Positions 30,005-39,034 of a DNA stretch of 64,000 bases are shown here, piece by piece. Position numbers and translations under genes: made by a program. The number at the start of each line of letters is the position of its first letter. Position 1 is the stretch's first letter. The notes beneath the pieces were generated by a model, which was given only the letters and a program-made list of their open reading frames with translations, did not search any database and was not told where the DNA came from. Source of the DNA: Escherichia phage RB32. The stretch lies in the sequence record NC_008515.1; one strand, given 5' to 3'.

Positions 30005-30478
30005 TTATTTGAATGATTTAACGTACTGAATAGAACCTTTACTATTCACGAAAGCGATTTTACCATTTTTATTATACATTGTAGCAGTACGTTGATAGCC
30101 ATAAGTTTGTTTACCAGATTGATAACCAACTAATGCGAAATTATCTTCACCCATTTTATTCTGTTTAGCGCGAATACGTTCATGACCATGTGCCATAAGA
30201 ACCTTAGCATCACCGGTTGCAATGGATCGACGAGTTTTTTCATCTTCAACTGTATTAACAAAGTCGTCAAATGAATCAAATTTAGCATGAGATTTATTAT
30301 ACAGTTTTCCATCTACTGCATAATTATATCCCTGTACATCCATCTCAACTTCTGTACCATCATCCAGTACAGCAGTGATTTTCTGTCCTTTTTTAAATTT
30401 CAAAAGATCAGTAAAAGATTCAGCAATAATTTGAGAATTAATAGCTGCTTCAGTAATAAATTCTTGATATGTTTTCAT
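30005..30478 (-). CDS. Internal head protein (IP family) with capsid-targeting N-terminus
   Basis: 157 aa; starts MKTYQEFITEAA, the T4 IP capsid-targeting sequence with the protease-type site after Glu; own early promoter upstream. Confidence 0.75.
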   Translation of the reverse strand: MKTYQEFITEAAINSQIIAESFTDLLKFKKGQKITAVLDDGTEVEMDVQGYNYAVDGKLYNKSHAKFDSFDDFVNTVEDEKTRRSIATGDAKVLMAHGHERIRAKQNKMGEDNFALVGYQSGKQTYGYQRTATMYNKNGKIAFVNSKGSIQYVKSFK

Positions 30479-33537: not shown

Positions 33538-34071
33538 TTATATCATGCTACTTAAGAGATGTAAACTATTTTTAATTTTACAAATTCGTTCAGCTTCTTC
33601 AACAGCGGCAGTGATAATGCTTTTAGCTATAGGAGTACTAATATTAGTAGCTTTTACACTTAACACGATTTCTTTATCTTTACCAGGCCAACCCCACGAT
33701 TTTTCACCATGAGTGCCTTTAATTACAGCAGACACCTCAAGTGAGCATCCATTATCGCATGTTTTTACATTAACAACCCAAGTGTCACTTTTCTCAACCG
33801 GTTTATCCCAGTAAATATTAAGAATACGTGGGACATCAAATTTAGCAGGGCAAATCTTAACCGTAAGACCTTCGCTTTCTAGCCAATTAATAAGAGGGCG
33901 TTCATACATGCGGCGATGTGGGCTTTGAACTCGACAAGCTTTGTACCCATTGCTTGCGGCTTCACTAAGCTCTTCTAATACATGCTTTTGCATTATTGAT
34001 AAGATACCATCAAAAGATTTTTCGGAAGTTTCATTCAGTTCGGTATAAAGAGACATAACAGTTTTCCTCAA
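33538..34071 (-). CDS. Hypothetical protein
   Basis: 177-aa ORF. Confidence 0.6.
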   Translation of the reverse strand: MRKTVMSLYTELNETSEKSFDGILSIMQKHVLEELSEAASNGYKACRVQSPHRRMYERPLINWLESEGLTVKICPAKFDVPRILNIYWDKPVEKSDTWVVNVKTCDNGCSLEVSAVIKGTHGEKSWGWPGKDKEIVLSVKATNISTPIAKSIITAAVEEAERICKIKNSLHLLSSMI

Positions 34072-34112
34072 ATTATAGGCTCATAATATCTCAATCATGA
34101 GCCTATGTAAAC

Positions 34113-34388
34113 TTATTTCATATTATTGAAATATTCTTCTGCGATTTCGTCGTTATCATGGTAAACTTTAGAAGACAGTTTAACATAACCTTCAGCAGTG
34201 AACATGTTAATCACAACCTTTACAGTATACCACTGACCATCTTCATTACCCATTACTGCGTAAGTTTCAAACATCGGATGATCAGGACCGATAACTTTAA
34301 TATCATTCACTGTACGACCGAAATCTTCTGAAACACATTTCATAAAGAAGTTGAACAGTTCGCCGTAATTATCCATTTCATTCTCCAA
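34113..34388 (-). CDS. Hypothetical small acidic protein
   Basis: 91-aa ORF immediately downstream of an early promoter. Confidence 0.6.
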   Translation of the reverse strand: MENEMDNYGELFNFFMKCVSEDFGRTVNDIKVIGPDHPMFETYAVMGNEDGQWYTVKVVINMFTAEGYVKLSSKVYHDNDEIAEEYFNNMK

Positions 34389-34419
34389 ATTGTTTTCTGT
34401 ATCAGTAGTTGATAGTTGT

Positions 34420-34449
34420 ATAGTACCATGGAAGAACAGGGATGTAAAC
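34420..34449 (-). promoter_or_regulatory. T4-type early promoter (-35 GTTTAC, 18-nt spacer, -10 TACTAT)
   Basis: Minus-strand GTTTACATCCCTGTTCTTCCATGGTACTATACAACTATCAACTACTGATAC. Confidence 0.6.
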
Positions 34450-34586
34450 AGTTTTGTGAAAAAATTTTTAAAAAGTTTTATGGAATTCTAGGGTCAGGAG
34501 GGACAATTAAAAGGTAGGATAATATATTATAAAGGGTATAAACTAAATGATGCCTAGAGAGACAAGGAAAGGCCTAGATACCAAAA

Positions 34587-34610
34587 AGCCCCAACCTTTC
34601 GGCTGGGGCT
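34587..34610 (-). terminator. Stem-loop terminator downstream of an IP gene; near-identical copy at 35142..35165
   Basis: AGCCCCA(a)CC-TTTC-GG(c)TGGGGCT hairpin. Confidence 0.55.
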
Positions 34611-34617
34611 AAGAATG

Positions 34618-35091
34618 TTATTTGATTTGTTTAGCAGACCAAATGCGGTCTTTAATAATTTTTTGGATGTCTTCAACATACTCAAGAGAGTGAGCATGTG
34701 GGTTATCTTTGAAACTATAAGCACGAGCTAACTTTTGACCTTCAGTTTTGATTACTAAAAGCTCTTTAAGGATAGCTTCATATCTGGAGATAATTCCTTT
34801 AACGATATTTTTCTCTTGTGTGACTTTAGGATCTGCTTTAGGAGCAGGTTTACCTGAAGCCTTTGCAAAAGCAGCTCCAGTAGCAACTAAACTTTTCCAA
34901 GCCATACTAACTGCATTCCCTGTAAATCCTTCGGCTTTCATATCACGAGCAAATTGGAATCGTGATTCATCGGAAGCATCTTTATAGGAATATTTACCCG
35001 CGGCAATGGCTGCTTTTGCGACAGCTTGAATTTCGGTGCTAGATGCTTCATTTAACACCGCTTCATTTAAAAATTGAGCATATGATTTCAT
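34618..35091 (-). CDS. Internal head protein (IP family) with capsid-targeting N-terminus
   Basis: 157 aa; starts MKSYAQFLNEAV; Ala/Lys-rich; flanked by repeated terminator hairpins. Confidence 0.7.
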   Translation of the reverse strand: MKSYAQFLNEAVLNEASSTEIQAVAKAAIAAGKYSYKDASDESRFQFARDMKAEGFTGNAVSMAWKSLVATGAAFAKASGKPAPKADPKVTQEKNIVKGIISRYEAILKELLVIKTEGQKLARAYSFKDNPHAHSLEYVEDIQKIIKDRIWSAKQIK

Positions 35092-35141
35092 CTTATTTCC
35101 TGTTTTAATTCGGGGTTTTAATATACTTATTTATACTAAAA

Positions 35142-35165
35142 AGCCCCAACCTTTCGGTCGGGGCT
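35142..35165 (-). terminator. Stem-loop terminator ending the tRNA-Arg/stable-RNA transcript; repeat of 34587..34610
   Basis: AGCCCCAACC-TTTC-GGTCGGGGCT hairpin. Confidence 0.55.
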
Positions 35166-35169
35166 AAGC

Positions 35170-35481
35170 CTTGCGGCAACCTTGTCGGGGTTCCACCTGC
35201 TAAGGCAAGTGTTTGTACGAAACGCCGGGATTCGAACCCGGTTATTAAGCAGTTGACGCTACTCAATATTTTTAAAAGGCCATATCTCGACCATATCCGA
35301 ACGTTCCGTCAAAAACGCTACTCGGCTTACGGCAAAGATATTTCCTCGAATCGATAATTCGGTGCGCCGTTTCTGCTGTGATGTAAGAGGGCATCAACAA
35401 ATCATAAAGATTTATTAACACAATTCCTTACTCAGGGAACATCAGTCCGACGACTTACCGGTAGCGACCCGGTTTCTTGTT
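35170..35481 (-). ncRNA. Non-coding region with a tRNA-like T-arm; candidate small stable RNA(s) as in the T4 tRNA region
   Basis: No credible ORF; CCGGGTTCGAATCCCGG T-arm-like element and flanking stems; bounded by tRNA-Arg and a terminator. Confidence 0.35.
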
Positions 35482-35558
<77 letters not shown>

Positions 35559-35561
35559 TAA

Positions 35562-36227
35562 TTAAAATTTCATTTTTCGACCTTTAAACCATCCTTCTGG
35601 AATTGGGTCAGTTTTCTTAATACGTTTAGAAACTTTTTCATCTAATGAATGAATCCACATCATACCAAATTGGGAATTCTTTTCGCCCTGTTGGTGTTTA
35701 TTTCTGGCGTGAGATTCTTTCATTTTATTAATAGTTTCAGGAGTATGATGCTTATTTAAAAATCTGCTATTATTTAAAAATTTTTCCCTGTATTCAGGAG
35801 TTGACCACAAGCGTTTAAATACATTTGAACCATGTTTACGATATTTTTCTTGAAGTAAAATATCATTTTTAAAACGTGACTTAAACGATTTAGCTCCTTT
35901 TAAACTAGCGTCTTTCTTCTGGTTTAGCATCCTAGGAATATTTATATGGTCCCATCCACCTTCACCACCAAGTTTTAAATTATACACATCTGGTCTATTT
36001 AAAAACTCTTCTGTGACAATATTTTTCTCGGCTTCAAGCATAGATTCTTTATCATCAAAATACTCTAATATTTCTTTAGAAAAATTTTCTATACCATATT
36101 TATCTTGGGCTCTTTTTAATAATTTACCAGAACCCATATATCCATCATCTAAATTTTCGGTAGAATGCACACCAATATAAATTTTATTATTAATTTTATT
36201 TGTTATTTTATAAGTGTAATGGAACAT
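35562..36227 (-). CDS. segB: GIY-YIG homing endonuclease SegB
   Basis: 221 aa; YTYKITNKINNKIYIGVHST..YMGSG GIY-YIG motifs; located inside the tRNA cluster as in T4. Confidence 0.85.
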   Translation of the reverse strand: MFHYTYKITNKINNKIYIGVHSTENLDDGYMGSGKLLKRAQDKYGIENFSKEILEYFDDKESMLEAEKNIVTEEFLNRPDVYNLKLGGEGGWDHINIPRMLNQKKDASLKGAKSFKSRFKNDILLQEKYRKHGSNVFKRLWSTPEYREKFLNNSRFLNKHHTPETINKMKESHARNKHQQGEKNSQFGMMWIHSLDEKVSKRIKKTDPIPEGWFKGRKMKF

Positions 36228-36268
36228 AAATATCTCCTATTTCTAAGAGTATTTATGTTCCCAAAATA

Positions 36269-36340
36269 TGGCCCTGGGTGGAATTGAACCACCATCTGGC
36301 GATTATGAGTCGCTTGCTTGAACCTTCCAGCTACAGGGCC
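36269..36340 (-). tRNA. tRNA-Ile: tRNA with CAU anticodon (Ile2-type or Met)
   Basis: Cloverleaf: acceptor GGCCCTG/CAGGGCC, anticodon loop CTCATAA, T arm GGTGG-TTCAATT-CCACC; T4 carries a CAU tRNA-Ile at this position. Confidence 0.7.
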
Positions 36341-36341
36341 T

Positions 36342-36417
36342 TGGTGCTGATTGACGGAATCGAACCGCCGACCTTCTCATTACAAGTGAGTTGCTCTACC
36401 TACTGAGCTAAATCAGC
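36342..36417 (-). tRNA. tRNA-Thr: tRNA-Thr (anticodon UGU)
   Basis: Acceptor GCTGATT/AATCAGC, D arm GCTC..GAGC, anticodon loop CTTGTAA, encoded ACCA. Confidence 0.8.
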
Positions 36418-36419
36418 AA

Positions 36420-36506
36420 CGGAGGCGATAGGATTTGAACCTATGAGTCGCCGGAGCGACTGCCGGTTTTCAAGACCGGTGCATTAAACCACTCTGCCAC
36501 GCCTCC
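36420..36506 (-). tRNA. tRNA-Ser: tRNA-Ser (anticodon UGA), long variable arm
   Basis: Acceptor GGAGGCG/CGCCTCC, anticodon stem-loop CCGGT-CTTGAAA-ACCGG, long extra arm, T loop TTCAAAT. Confidence 0.8.
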
Positions 36507-36508
36507 AG

Positions 36509-36582
36509 TCTCCATACAAGGATTTGAACCTTGGACCTCCTGATCCCAAATCAGGCGCTCTACCAAACTGAGCTACACGGAG
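36509..36582 (-). tRNA. tRNA-Pro: tRNA-Pro (anticodon UGG)
   Basis: Anticodon stem-loop CCTGA-TTTGGGA-TCAGG, D arm TAGCTCAGTTTGGTAGAGC, T arm CAAGG-TTCAAAT-CCTTG. Confidence 0.8.
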
Positions 36583-36592
36583 TAAATTAAAT

Positions 36593-36666
<74 letters not shown>

Positions 36667-36671
36667 AAATT

Positions 36672-36758
36672 TGGTGCGAGAAGTGGGACTCGAACCCACA
36701 AGGAAATCATTCCGCAGCATTTTAAGTGCTGTGCCTTTACCAATTTGACCATTCTCGC
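36672..36758 (-). tRNA. tRNA-Leu: tRNA-Leu (anticodon UAA), long variable arm
   Basis: Acceptor GCGAGAA/TTCTCGC, anticodon stem-loop CAGCA-CTTAAAA-TGCTG, encoded ACCA. Confidence 0.8.
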
Positions 36759-36759
36759 G

Positions 36760-36832
36760 CTGGGAATAAAGGACTCGAACCTTTGCATCTAGCAGTCAAA
36801 GTGCTATGCCTTACCAACTTGGCTAATTCCCA
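36760..36832 (-). tRNA. tRNA-Gln: tRNA-Gln (anticodon UUG)
   Basis: TGGGAATTAGCCAAGTTGGTAAGGCATAGCACTTTGACTGCTAGATGCAAAGGTTCGAGTCCTTTATTCCCA; matches T4 tRNA-Gln as recalled. Confidence 0.85.
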
Positions 36833-36918
36833 ATTATTAACAAAGGCTCTCAAGCAAGAACCCTTGATGATAGAGGGTATTAATCAGTGCGGTATGAGTT
36901 AATAATAACAAATAATTC

Positions 36919-37434
36919 TTAAAGCAAATTAAACATTTTAACAGTCGGCAAAACAATTTCTTTTTCTATATAAGAGTATTTAACACTCTCAACTACACGC
37001 AGAAAATCATAATCATAATATTCAGAAGCACTGCCTAAAATATTAATAAGTCCTTCAAACACTTTATTACCATTCACAAAGAATAAATCAAATACACGTT
37101 CTTCATCTTCTTCGGATTTATTACCAAGGTCAACTTCTATATCAAAGACCTTTTTAATGAATTCTGGATAAAGTTGGTCTGAGAACAGTCCTTCAACCAA
37201 GTATTCATAAATAAAAAGCGATTGCTCGCTGAACAAGCCATTACCACAATAACGTTCAGCTTTAGTACTAGAATGTCTGCTTTTAAACTTCTTTAAAAGA
37301 TATTGAAATTGTAAGATTTCATGCTCTTCTACGCCAAACAGTGTTTTAGTTTTATAGTTGTCACCATCATTTTCCCAGGTAGTGACATCAATTACGTAAC
37401 CCTGCGGAATTGTAGTACCTAAACAAATATTCAT
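36919..37434 (-). CDS. Hypothetical acidic protein
   Basis: 171-aa ORF upstream of the tRNA cluster. Confidence 0.6.
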   Translation of the reverse strand: MNICLGTTIPQGYVIDVTTWENDGDNYKTKTLFGVEEHEILQFQYLLKKFKSRHSSTKAERYCGNGLFSEQSLFIYEYLVEGLFSDQLYPEFIKKVFDIEVDLGNKSEEDEERVFDLFFVNGNKVFEGLINILGSASEYYDYDFLRVVESVKYSYIEKEIVLPTVKMFNLL

Positions 37435-38391: not shown

Positions 38392-38700
38392 CTATTTTAT
38401 TCCGCGTGATGCAATTGTGTTCTGCCGTTTAGCACCAGTTTGTTTAAAATCATGATTGTCGATTTGATCGGTACGAGCAACTCCGAATGATGATTTGATT
38501 TTAGCTTTAGATCCTTTAGTTATAGAAATAAACATCTCGGAAGCCCCTTTCTTAAAGTCCGAGGCGATTACTTCAACGCCGTTCTTAGCAAGTGACTTCA
38601 GAATTGCCTCAGCATACTCATCGTCAAGACTCGCCTGAGTATTAATAACGAATGTCTTTGGCGCAGCCGCTTCATTGATAAATTCTTTAAATGTTTTCAT
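38392..38700 (-). CDS. Internal head protein (IP family) with capsid-targeting N-terminus
   Basis: 102 aa; starts MKTFKEFINEAAAP; own promoter. Confidence 0.7.
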   Translation of the reverse strand: MKTFKEFINEAAAPKTFVINTQASLDDEYAEAILKSLAKNGVEVIASDFKKGASEMFISITKGSKAKIKSSFGVARTDQIDNHDFKQTGAKRQNTIASRGIK

Positions 38701-38761: not shown

Positions 38762-39034
38762 TCATTTTAAATAAATTGCGTATTTTTTATAACCCGCTGA
38801 CTCATGACGAAGACCCTTATCATTAGCAAAACGCTCAATGTTGTTAATTTGATTCTGATCAAGTTCAGAGATGTCAAACACGAAAAAGTTACGTTTGTTA
38901 CCAACTGTTATATAGTCAGTTAAATCAATATCATATAGGTAATTGATGTCAGCAATCAAAGTCTTGACAGCTTTGCTAATTTTTACTTTTTCGTTAAAAG
39001 CAGCTTCAGAAATAAATTCTTGATACGTTTTCAT
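38762..39034 (-). CDS. Internal head protein (IP family) with capsid-targeting N-terminus
   Basis: 90 aa; starts MKTYQEFISEAAF; own promoter. Confidence 0.7.
   Translation of the reverse strand: MKTYQEFISEAAFNEKVKISKAVKTLIADINYLYDIDLTDYITVGNKRNFFVFDISELDQNQINNIERFANDKGLRHESAGYKKYAIYLK

Follow-up and report, generated by a model that had tools for sequence, protein, structure and literature searches.

A probable internal-protein cassette bounded by two near-identical terminator-like hairpins after the tRNA/stable-RNA operon of Escherichia phage RB32

In the genome of Escherichia phage RB32 a gene of the internal protein (IP) type, here called X, lies between two near-identical copies of a terminator-like hairpin, directly after the operon that encodes tRNA-Arg and two stable RNAs. 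The DNA analysed, referred to as the window, comprises 64,000 nucleotides (nt) of one strand of record NC_008515.1. We consider it likely, from comparison of related sequences, that a late promoter, X and a terminator form an insulated cassette, and that recombination between the terminator copies would lead to the precise loss of X and, in principle, to its re-insertion via a circle. The 1.7-kb region around X is 100% identical to that of Enterobacteria phage RB33 (KM607001.1, Tequatrovirus), whose gene annotation was mapped onto the window and by whose name the locus is called below. In the order of transcription, all on the minus strand, the locus consists of the tRNA cluster, segB, tRNA-Arg, rnaD, rnaC, hairpin copy B, X, hairpin copy A and e.8 (Table 1).

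Related phages differ in what they carry between rnaC and e.8. This slot is empty, with a single hairpin, in T4 and T2; it contains only X in RB33 and many others, only a second gene, Y, in RB14 and RB69, and X followed by Y in JB75, MLP2 and OMNI12. An alignment of twelve junctions revealed three left flanks, namely the ends of rnaC, X and Y, and in the T-even phages three right flanks, namely the e.8 leader (TTTTTGGTATCTAGG...), the X promoter (TTTTT(A/G)GTATAAATA...) and the Y leader (TTTTTAGTTTGAATC...). In Mosigvirus APCEc01 a different gene is located downstream of X. Five of the T-even joins occur at the conserved hairpin (rnaC to e.8, rnaC to X, rnaC to Y, X to e.8 and X to Y); the join of Y to e.8 has a different stem (CCCTATC-TAAAT-GATAGGG), with only the tail GGGCTTTTTGGTATC in common. 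All junctions examined fall inside the hairpin or its T-run. The single hairpin of T4 combines the stem variant of RB33 copy B with the tail of copy A, and such a hybrid is the product that would be expected of a crossover within the repeat.

The original prediction, made from the letters of the window, had read the repeats on both sides of X as the footprint of modular gene exchange. The four states of the slot and the position of the junctions support this reading, in which the exchange would proceed by recombination at the repeats; in the alignment with related T-even genomes the gene content varies while the hairpins are kept, and a uniform content was not seen. Some caveats apply. The variation is mostly one of presence, absence and stacking, together with allelic divergence, rather than a one-for-one replacement between the same two repeats. 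Moreover, the repeats would explain the loss of X better than its arrival, because X looks ancestral at the site.

The 24-nt hairpins, copy A (AGCCCCAACCTTTCGGCTGGGGCT) and copy B (AGCCCCAACCTTTCGGTCGGGGCT), flank X as had been predicted. At up to three mismatches they are the sole matches in the window, and 100 shuffles yielded none. The direct repeat is in fact longer, 36 nt, of which 33 are identical between the two copies at a spacing of 555 nt; on the minus strand both copies read CTTAGCCCC(AG/GA)CCGAAAGGTTGGGGCTTTTT(G/A)GTAT. The identity thus goes past the stem, the loop and the U-run, to CTT before them and GTAT after them. In the IMG/VR contig L021 (hairpins at 563-586 and 1118-1141) the AG and GA stem variants are found on the opposite copies from those in RB33, which suggests that exchange or gene conversion may have taken place between the copies.

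For both copies the predicted minus-strand fold is a perfect stem of 10 bp, 7 of them G-C pairs, which is closed by a GAAA tetraloop and runs into UUUUU; the free energies amount to -22.8 kcal/mol (z -3.5) for one hairpin and -20.3 kcal/mol (z -3.2) for the other. At the two stem positions that differ, A-U/G.U is exchanged for G.U/A-U, so that pairing is retained. On the plus strand the fold of both copies contains an A.C mismatch in the stem and is without a T-run. Because the U-run and the perfect stem occur on the minus strand only, both hairpins look like intrinsic terminators for leftward transcription. Both have the features of rho-independent terminators, in that a GC-rich stem-loop runs into a U-tract, on the coding strand and past the last gene of a unit: copy B is located 50 nt past the annotated rnaC of the tRNA-Arg/rnaD/rnaC unit and copy A 7 nt past the stop codon of X. 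Positions, strand and predicted folds agree with the earlier assignment of one hairpin to the end of the tRNA-Arg/stable-RNA unit and of the other to the end of the IP-type gene. In T4 the homologous stem-loop after the species 1 RNA is annotated as 'pot. stem-loop structure; pot. terminator' in the 1985 record of the tRNA region (GenBank X03016). Copy B is the orthologue of this stem-loop, alike in position, stem and loop; T4, however, has a single copy with no gene behind it, whereas RB33 has a second copy 555 nt downstream.

X and Y were searched by tblastn in a phage collection. X was found in 510 records, in one place each and always at the same locus, 468 of them at 80% coverage or more. 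Y was found in 165 records, again in one place each, with an identity of at least 95% in 164. The junction X/T/e.8 occurred in 276 records and the junction X/T/Y in 125; since Y is present in 165 records and X/T/Y in 125, about 40 records carry Y only. In an evenly spaced sample of 60 records, approximately 40 contained both anchors, and among these were about 5 empty slots, 20 with X only, 5 with Y only and 9-10 with larger inserts. The query for the empty-site junction returned 316 records in which empty and X-only sites are mixed, as pieces were joined across the 555-nt insert; empty sites can therefore be put only roughly, at 40-100.

In the Mosigviruses APCEc01, AV118 and phiE142 X is located directly after the rnaC terminator, at 72% nucleotide identity. 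The next element in APCEc01 and AV118 is a similar, non-identical hairpin, behind which a different gene is found. In Jiaodavirus K5 the tRNA cluster is followed by a homologue of the N-terminal half of X, and the string GGGGCTTTTTAGTATAAATA that precedes this homologue is identical to that of RB33. Phage G8 carries a third X allele, with 77-79% nucleotide identity to the RB33 type and 74-75% to the Mosigvirus type, and its divergence from RB33 begins immediately past copy B. Between G8 and RB33 the flanks, rnaC with copy B on one side and copy A with the e.8 leader on the other, show 96-100% identity. X alleles that are only 72-79% identical are found between flanks of 96-100% identity. A stretch of rnaC adjacent to X (window 35174-35324) is identical at 150 of 150 positions between RB33 and APCEc01 (L028), next to X genes with 72% identity, which reflects either extreme constraint on the stable RNA or lateral sweeps of the tRNA/stable-RNA segment. 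Because X is syntenic in Mosigvirus and has a diverged relative in Jiaodavirus, it is probably an old resident of the slot, and the empty state of T4 and T2 and the Y-only state of RB14 are probably secondary losses. For a loss of X at exact boundaries, the 36-bp repeat is the sole available homology.

The following scheme is proposed. The late promoter TATAAATA, a ribosome-binding site, X and a terminator would form a self-contained expression cassette that begins just past the tRNA/stable-RNA operon terminator. As the predicted cassette terminator is a near copy of that of the operon, a 36-bp direct repeat brackets a 555-bp unit. Terminator B would halt the tRNA/rnaD/rnaC transcript, and X would then be transcribed late from its own promoter. 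The product of X would be packed into the prohead via its leader, trimmed at L-x-E by the prohead protease and injected together with the DNA. Terminator A would halt the X transcript ahead of the early promoter of e.8. With insulation on either side, loss or stacking of the unit could leave the adjacent genes unaffected. If the terminator copies underwent homologous recombination, exactly X would be removed and one hybrid terminator would stay behind, as in T4 and T2. In other phages a second cassette, Y, is joined at the same junction, formed by the 3' stem GGGGC and the T-run. While the repeat, the predicted folds, the promoter motif, the leader, the four states of the slot and the breakpoint positions are read from the sequences, termination, late transcription and packaging are inferred, as are the deletions by recombination at the repeats and the direction of change (X ancestral, the empty slot derived).

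Several points weigh against the cassette model. The evidence is comparative throughout, recombination at the repeats being read from sequence comparisons, and for X, whose packaging is a prediction, a structural model of moderate quality gave no informative fold match. Two strong terminators that are near-identical are not by themselves proof of a duplication. The 24-nt hairpin core (AGCCCC..CCGAAAGGTTGGGGCT), with the central two stem positions varying, also occurs in contigs L009, L010, L013-L016 and L020, none of which shares RB33 locus probe sequences. At the downstream end of Y the different stem leaves only about 10 nt of homology (GGGCTTTTT). In G8 the identity with RB33 recovers inside the conserved 3' part of X and not at copy A, and the sharp 5' boundary of its divergence could result from the strong constraint on rnaC alone. 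Finally, for the variants to spread between phages, crossovers within the conserved flanks would suffice, and these may be stimulated by the adjacent homing endonuclease gene segB.

The hairpin core is, as a predicted structure, a recurrent terminator design, and this gives some weight to the best of the alternatives: the two hairpins of RB33 would be independent terminators that are alike owing to a favoured GC-rich design with a GNRA loop and that delimit genes without taking part in recombination, the insertions and deletions having arisen otherwise and having spread by crossovers in the flanks (rnaC/tRNA and e.8). Besides the occurrence of the core in viral contigs that share no probe sequences with RB33, the differing hairpins on the two sides of the X-like gene of Jiaodavirus K5 speak for it, and the 96-100% conservation of the flanks provides ample homology for exchange. 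We nevertheless regard it as unlikely. The identity of the repeat copies continues past the functional stem, loop and U-run into CTT and GTAT; every breakpoint examined lies in a hairpin or T-run and none elsewhere in the intergenic DNA; the precise loss of X with one hybrid hairpin left behind is what repeat-mediated deletion predicts; and the stem variants are swapped between the copies of RB33 and L021. An exact-pattern scan of IMG/VR for the hairpin yielded 17 loci only, too few for a census. In some of the contigs L009, L010, L013, L015, L016 and L020 the core is located between convergent genes, where it is a possible two-way terminator.

In a second and much less probable scenario, SegB breaks the tRNA region of a co-infecting phage, and repair from the genome that carries segB co-converts X or Y, with the hairpins being incidental. 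segB lies about 470 nt from X, and SegB has been reported to favour the inheritance of the tRNA region of T4 when infections are mixed (PMC2330249). The complete identity of rnaC over 150 nt between RB33 and APCEc01 next to an X of 72% identity would be compatible with sweeps of such a segment. Co-conversion tracts are, however, expected to end variably, and breakpoints exactly in the terminators would be left unexplained. Furthermore, T2 and RB14 are without an annotated segB at this location yet differ in the state of the slot, while T4, with an empty slot, and RB33, with X, both carry segB. That X is a recently inserted mobile element, which brought a terminator copy with it or duplicated its target, is hardly credible: a direct repeat around a single gene and the existence of empty sites do resemble an insertion footprint, but the cassette encodes no recombinase, transposase or nuclease (PHROGs, Pfam, NCBIfam), X is syntenic in Mosigvirus with a diverged relative in Jiaodavirus and deep allelic divergence, and each of the 510 records has one copy. 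The absence of a nuclease or recombinase domain in X, the cassette's own promoter and the single locus are likewise not those of an autonomous mobile element. None of these alternatives explains why every junction falls in a hairpin or T-run.

The predicted late promoter of X is based on the motif TATAAATA, which begins 2 nt past the U-run of copy B. In the 64 kb the minus strand has 9 occurrences of it, against approximately 8 expected per strand. Because this frequency is near chance, its significance comes from its conservation at the homologous position, where it is found exactly in JB75, MLP2, OMNI12, JEP6, G8, Jiaodavirus K5 (Klebsiella) and the metagenomic contigs L019 and L006; the Mosigviruses APCEc01 and phiE142 have AATAAATA in its place. 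X would be expressed late from this promoter of its own. The early-type promoter of e.8 is located about 140 nt downstream of copy A, outside the repeat, in a region conserved in T4, RB14 and JB75.

The prohead protease of T4, gp21, cleaves at the motif L/I-x-E. The product of X begins MKSYAQFLNEAVLNEA, and its leader, MKSYAQFLNE, resembles that of T4 IPIII, MKTYQEFIAEA, with 5 of 10 residues identical and 3 conservative; the L-x-E motif is present as LNE at residues 8-10 and again at 13-15. Leader and motifs bear out the earlier classification of the gene as IP-type. X matches phrog_2280, a family of unknown function (E 7e-60), and searches of Pfam and NCBIfam gave no match for X or Y. All relatives of X bear the name 'hypothetical' and are encoded by Tevenvirinae. 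AlphaFold predicts an all-helical structure for X with moderate confidence (pLDDT 71, pTM 0.40), and a Foldseek search with this model against BFVD and the PDB retrieved only X's own relatives and no informative fold. X is a probable internal, injected head protein to which no activity is assigned, its packaging being predicted from the leader.

Four open reading frames (ORFs) of the window, X included, have the leader pattern. By their position on the T4 map we assign two of the other three to the ipI region and the third to the vicinity of the ipII/ipIII region. The two presumed ipI-region ORFs, on the minus strand, encode 102 amino acids (aa; 38700..38392, MKTFKEFINEA) and 90 aa (39034..38762, MKTYQEFISEA). 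A near-identical early-promoter block (GTTTAC...GATACTAT...ATCAACTACTGAGGAGAATAAAATG) precedes both of them and the next gene downstream. The fourth leader ORF, of 157 aa (MKTYQEFITEAA; window 30005-30478, minus strand), is presumably the one near the ipII/ipIII region, beside gene e. The repeated-promoter arrangement at the ipI-region ORFs is of the kind attributed to Repoila et al. (1994) by a later paper that cites it (PMC2839356).

Gene Y encodes 187 aa and starts with MKTYAEFLTEA. X and Y have 8 of their first 11 residues in common and no similarity elsewhere. An origin of the pair by tandem duplication was considered and found to be unsupported, as neither X and Y nor the Klebsiella X-like protein and Y showed homology past the leader. 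In RB69, Y is frameshifted into two overlapping ORFs, RB69ORF148c and 149c (L023:1704-2266), and is probably a pseudogene or the result of a sequencing error. Y was found in two Mosigviruses, RB69 and phiE142, and is nearly uniform across Tequatrovirus, which suggests a recent lateral spread.

Other genes have been found at the same site. In a metagenomic Mosigvirus-like contig (L019:12364-13200) TATAAATA comes next after the rnaC terminator, and then a leader-like ORF of 126 aa starting MYTVNEFLAETE. Reading frames that run on past its stop codon suggest a larger gene that may be frameshifted. This ORF is a candidate third kind of cargo at the rnaC-terminator site. In another T4-like lineage a comparison of L006 (reverse strand, ~8674 onward) with L011 (~1112 onward) revealed a unit inserted at the T-run of the rnaC terminator; it consists of TATAAATA, an ORF of 184 aa for a probable membrane protein (MKLLKYLSWILLVPL...) and a terminator of its own (AGCCCGCATTGCGGGCT), and is bounded by a duplicated GGGCTTTTTTATA.

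The mechanism proposed here has already been published (Repoila et al. 1994, as cited in PMC2839356; Arbiol 2010, PMC2839356; Comeau 2014, PMC4122927), and the RB33 locus is a new instance of it with a late-promoter twist. In T4-type phages early promoter/stem-loop elements (PeSLs), stem-loop terminators with early promoters, flank small ORFs in hyperplastic regions and mark the endpoints of insertions and deletions, and deletion and formation of mini-circles between the flanking cassettes were described in RB49 and phi1 (PMC2839356; PMC4122927). The locus resembles PeSLs in its repeated stem-loop terminator, the adjacent promoter, the small non-essential ORFs and the insulated cassettes, and in the endpoints of insertions and deletions of close relatives, which are located in the elements flanking them; the PeSL model comprises deletion, excision as a mini-circle and re-integration. 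The locus differs in that the repeat contains only the terminator and T-run (36 nt) and no strong early (sigma-70-like) promoter, copy B being coupled to the late promoter TATAAATA, and in that its stem deviates from the PeSL consensus of T4 and PST (AGNA-loop-TCNT).

According to PMC2839356 and PMC4122927, Repoila et al. (1994; EMBO J 13:4181) had seen comparable elements in T-even phages, at 'the two highly variable IP loci', and the proposed role of these loci, in the literature cited in PMC2839356 and PMC3012670, is adaptation to the host range or anti-restriction. As far as the citing papers describe them, the rnaC-e.8 slot and these loci are alike in that small genes of variable number and identity, sharing the leader alone, are separated by repeated regulatory sequences. 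The two IP loci of Repoila and colleagues we take to be the ipI and ipII/ipIII regions. By these accounts the slot is unlike them in its location past the rnaC terminator and ahead of e.8, a position that in T4 is without an IP gene, and in its strong GC-rich terminator, the repeats of those loci being based on early promoters with weak AT-rich stem-loops (PMC2839356). We found no paper describing the rnaC-e.8 slot as an IP locus, Repoila et al. (1994) being known to us through the citing papers alone, and the SegB paper does not mention the slot (PMC2330249). The GGGC motif reported at T4 deletion endpoints (Mosig et al. 1998, as cited in PMC2839356) recalls the junctions described here, GGGGC/GGGC plus T-run in GCCCC...GGGGC hairpins. 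The work of Mosig et al., in that account, concerns a different locus and laboratory deletions rather than natural variants; the resemblance is a lead only.

T4-like phages adapt to their hosts partly by small injected proteins that disarm host defences; IPI* of T4, for example, inhibits a restriction enzyme that targets DNA containing glucosylated hydroxymethylcytosine (glucosyl-hmC). Knowledge of where and how such genes are swapped helps to predict host range and to find new anti-defence proteins, and X and Y are nominated as candidate injected proteins. The locus offers a clean natural example, with four combinations of presence and absence of two cassettes, junctions at nucleotide level and hundreds of sequenced phages. 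It suggests that exchangeable modules can be bounded by elements made of a terminator and a late promoter as well as by the early-promoter PeSLs; the general view of how phage genomes evolve is unchanged by it. As a more tentative proposal, possible though doubtful at present, the terminator of the tRNA/stable-RNA operon might be a third, so far unrecognised IP locus of the Tevenvirinae, a stacking site that gains and sheds self-contained cassettes of late promoter, leader-bearing gene and terminator at GGGGC plus T-run without a dedicated recombinase. Its cargo would comprise X, with at least three deep alleles, Y, the leader-like gene of L019 and the membrane-protein-like ORF of L006. If this were true, the injected anti-defence proteins encoded by the cargo would form a reservoir, and the junction motif, akin to the GGGC deletion endpoints of Mosig et al., would be a hotspot of recombination.

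The features of the locus are listed in Table 1. A search of positions 34000-37000 with Rfam found tRNAs only and no rnaC or rnaD family; because Rfam has no such family, the identity of rnaC and rnaD rests on the annotations of RB33 and T4.

Table 1. Features of the tRNA-Arg to e.8 region in the window
Feature	Position	Strand	Basis or remark
segB homing endonuclease gene	35562-36227	-	~470 nt from X
tRNA-Arg (UCU)	35482..35558	-	ARAGORN; Rfam tRNA 69 bits; RB33 annotation; ends the tRNA cluster and heads the stable-RNA transcription unit
rnaD, stable species 2 RNA	35360-35480	-	RB33 annotation
rnaC, stable species 1 RNA	35216-35354	-	RB33 annotation; region 98% identical to T4 rnaC
Repeat copy B, predicted terminator of the tRNA/rnaD/rnaC transcript	35133..35168	-	hairpin 35142-35165, U-run 35137-35141
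T4-type late promoter motif TATAAATA	35128..35135	-	2 nt past the U-run; overlaps the last 3 nt of the repeat
Shine-Dalgarno-like AGGAAA	35096..35101	-	4 nt ahead of the X ATG; read from the sequence
Gene X (RB33_134), 157 aa	34618..35091	-	probable internal (injected) head protein
Repeat copy A, predicted terminator of X	34578..34613	-	hairpin 34587-34610, U-run 34582-34586
Early-type promoter of e.8	34420..34448	-	TTTACA-17-TACTAT, TG before the -10 element
e.8, conserved downstream flank of the slot	34113..34376	-	RB33 annotation; 97-99% identical in T4, JEP6, OMNI12

Further variation was observed on both sides of the slot. An insert of approximately 366 bp with an ORF of 114-116 aa (MKGNVYLVVHDLTFYF...) is located between rnaD and tRNA-Arg in T2 (ORF at L024:2005-2355), JEP6 (L002:2981-3331) and RB69 (L023:2696-3040). 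It is absent from RB33 and T4, and the insertion point in the window would be ~35480/35481. In MLP2 the corresponding position holds an ORF of equal length (L025:6051-6401), matched by length and position alone. The insert is independent of segB, because JEP6 carries both. On the other side of e.8, the place of the T4 gene e.7 (336 nt) is taken in RB33 by an unrelated gene of 172-177 aa, RB33_132 (phrog_6869; window 33538-34071, minus strand). X is immediately followed by a homologue of RB33_132 in Mosigvirus APCEc01 and by a truncated one in AV118. The e.7/RB33_132 position is a further replaceable slot next door.

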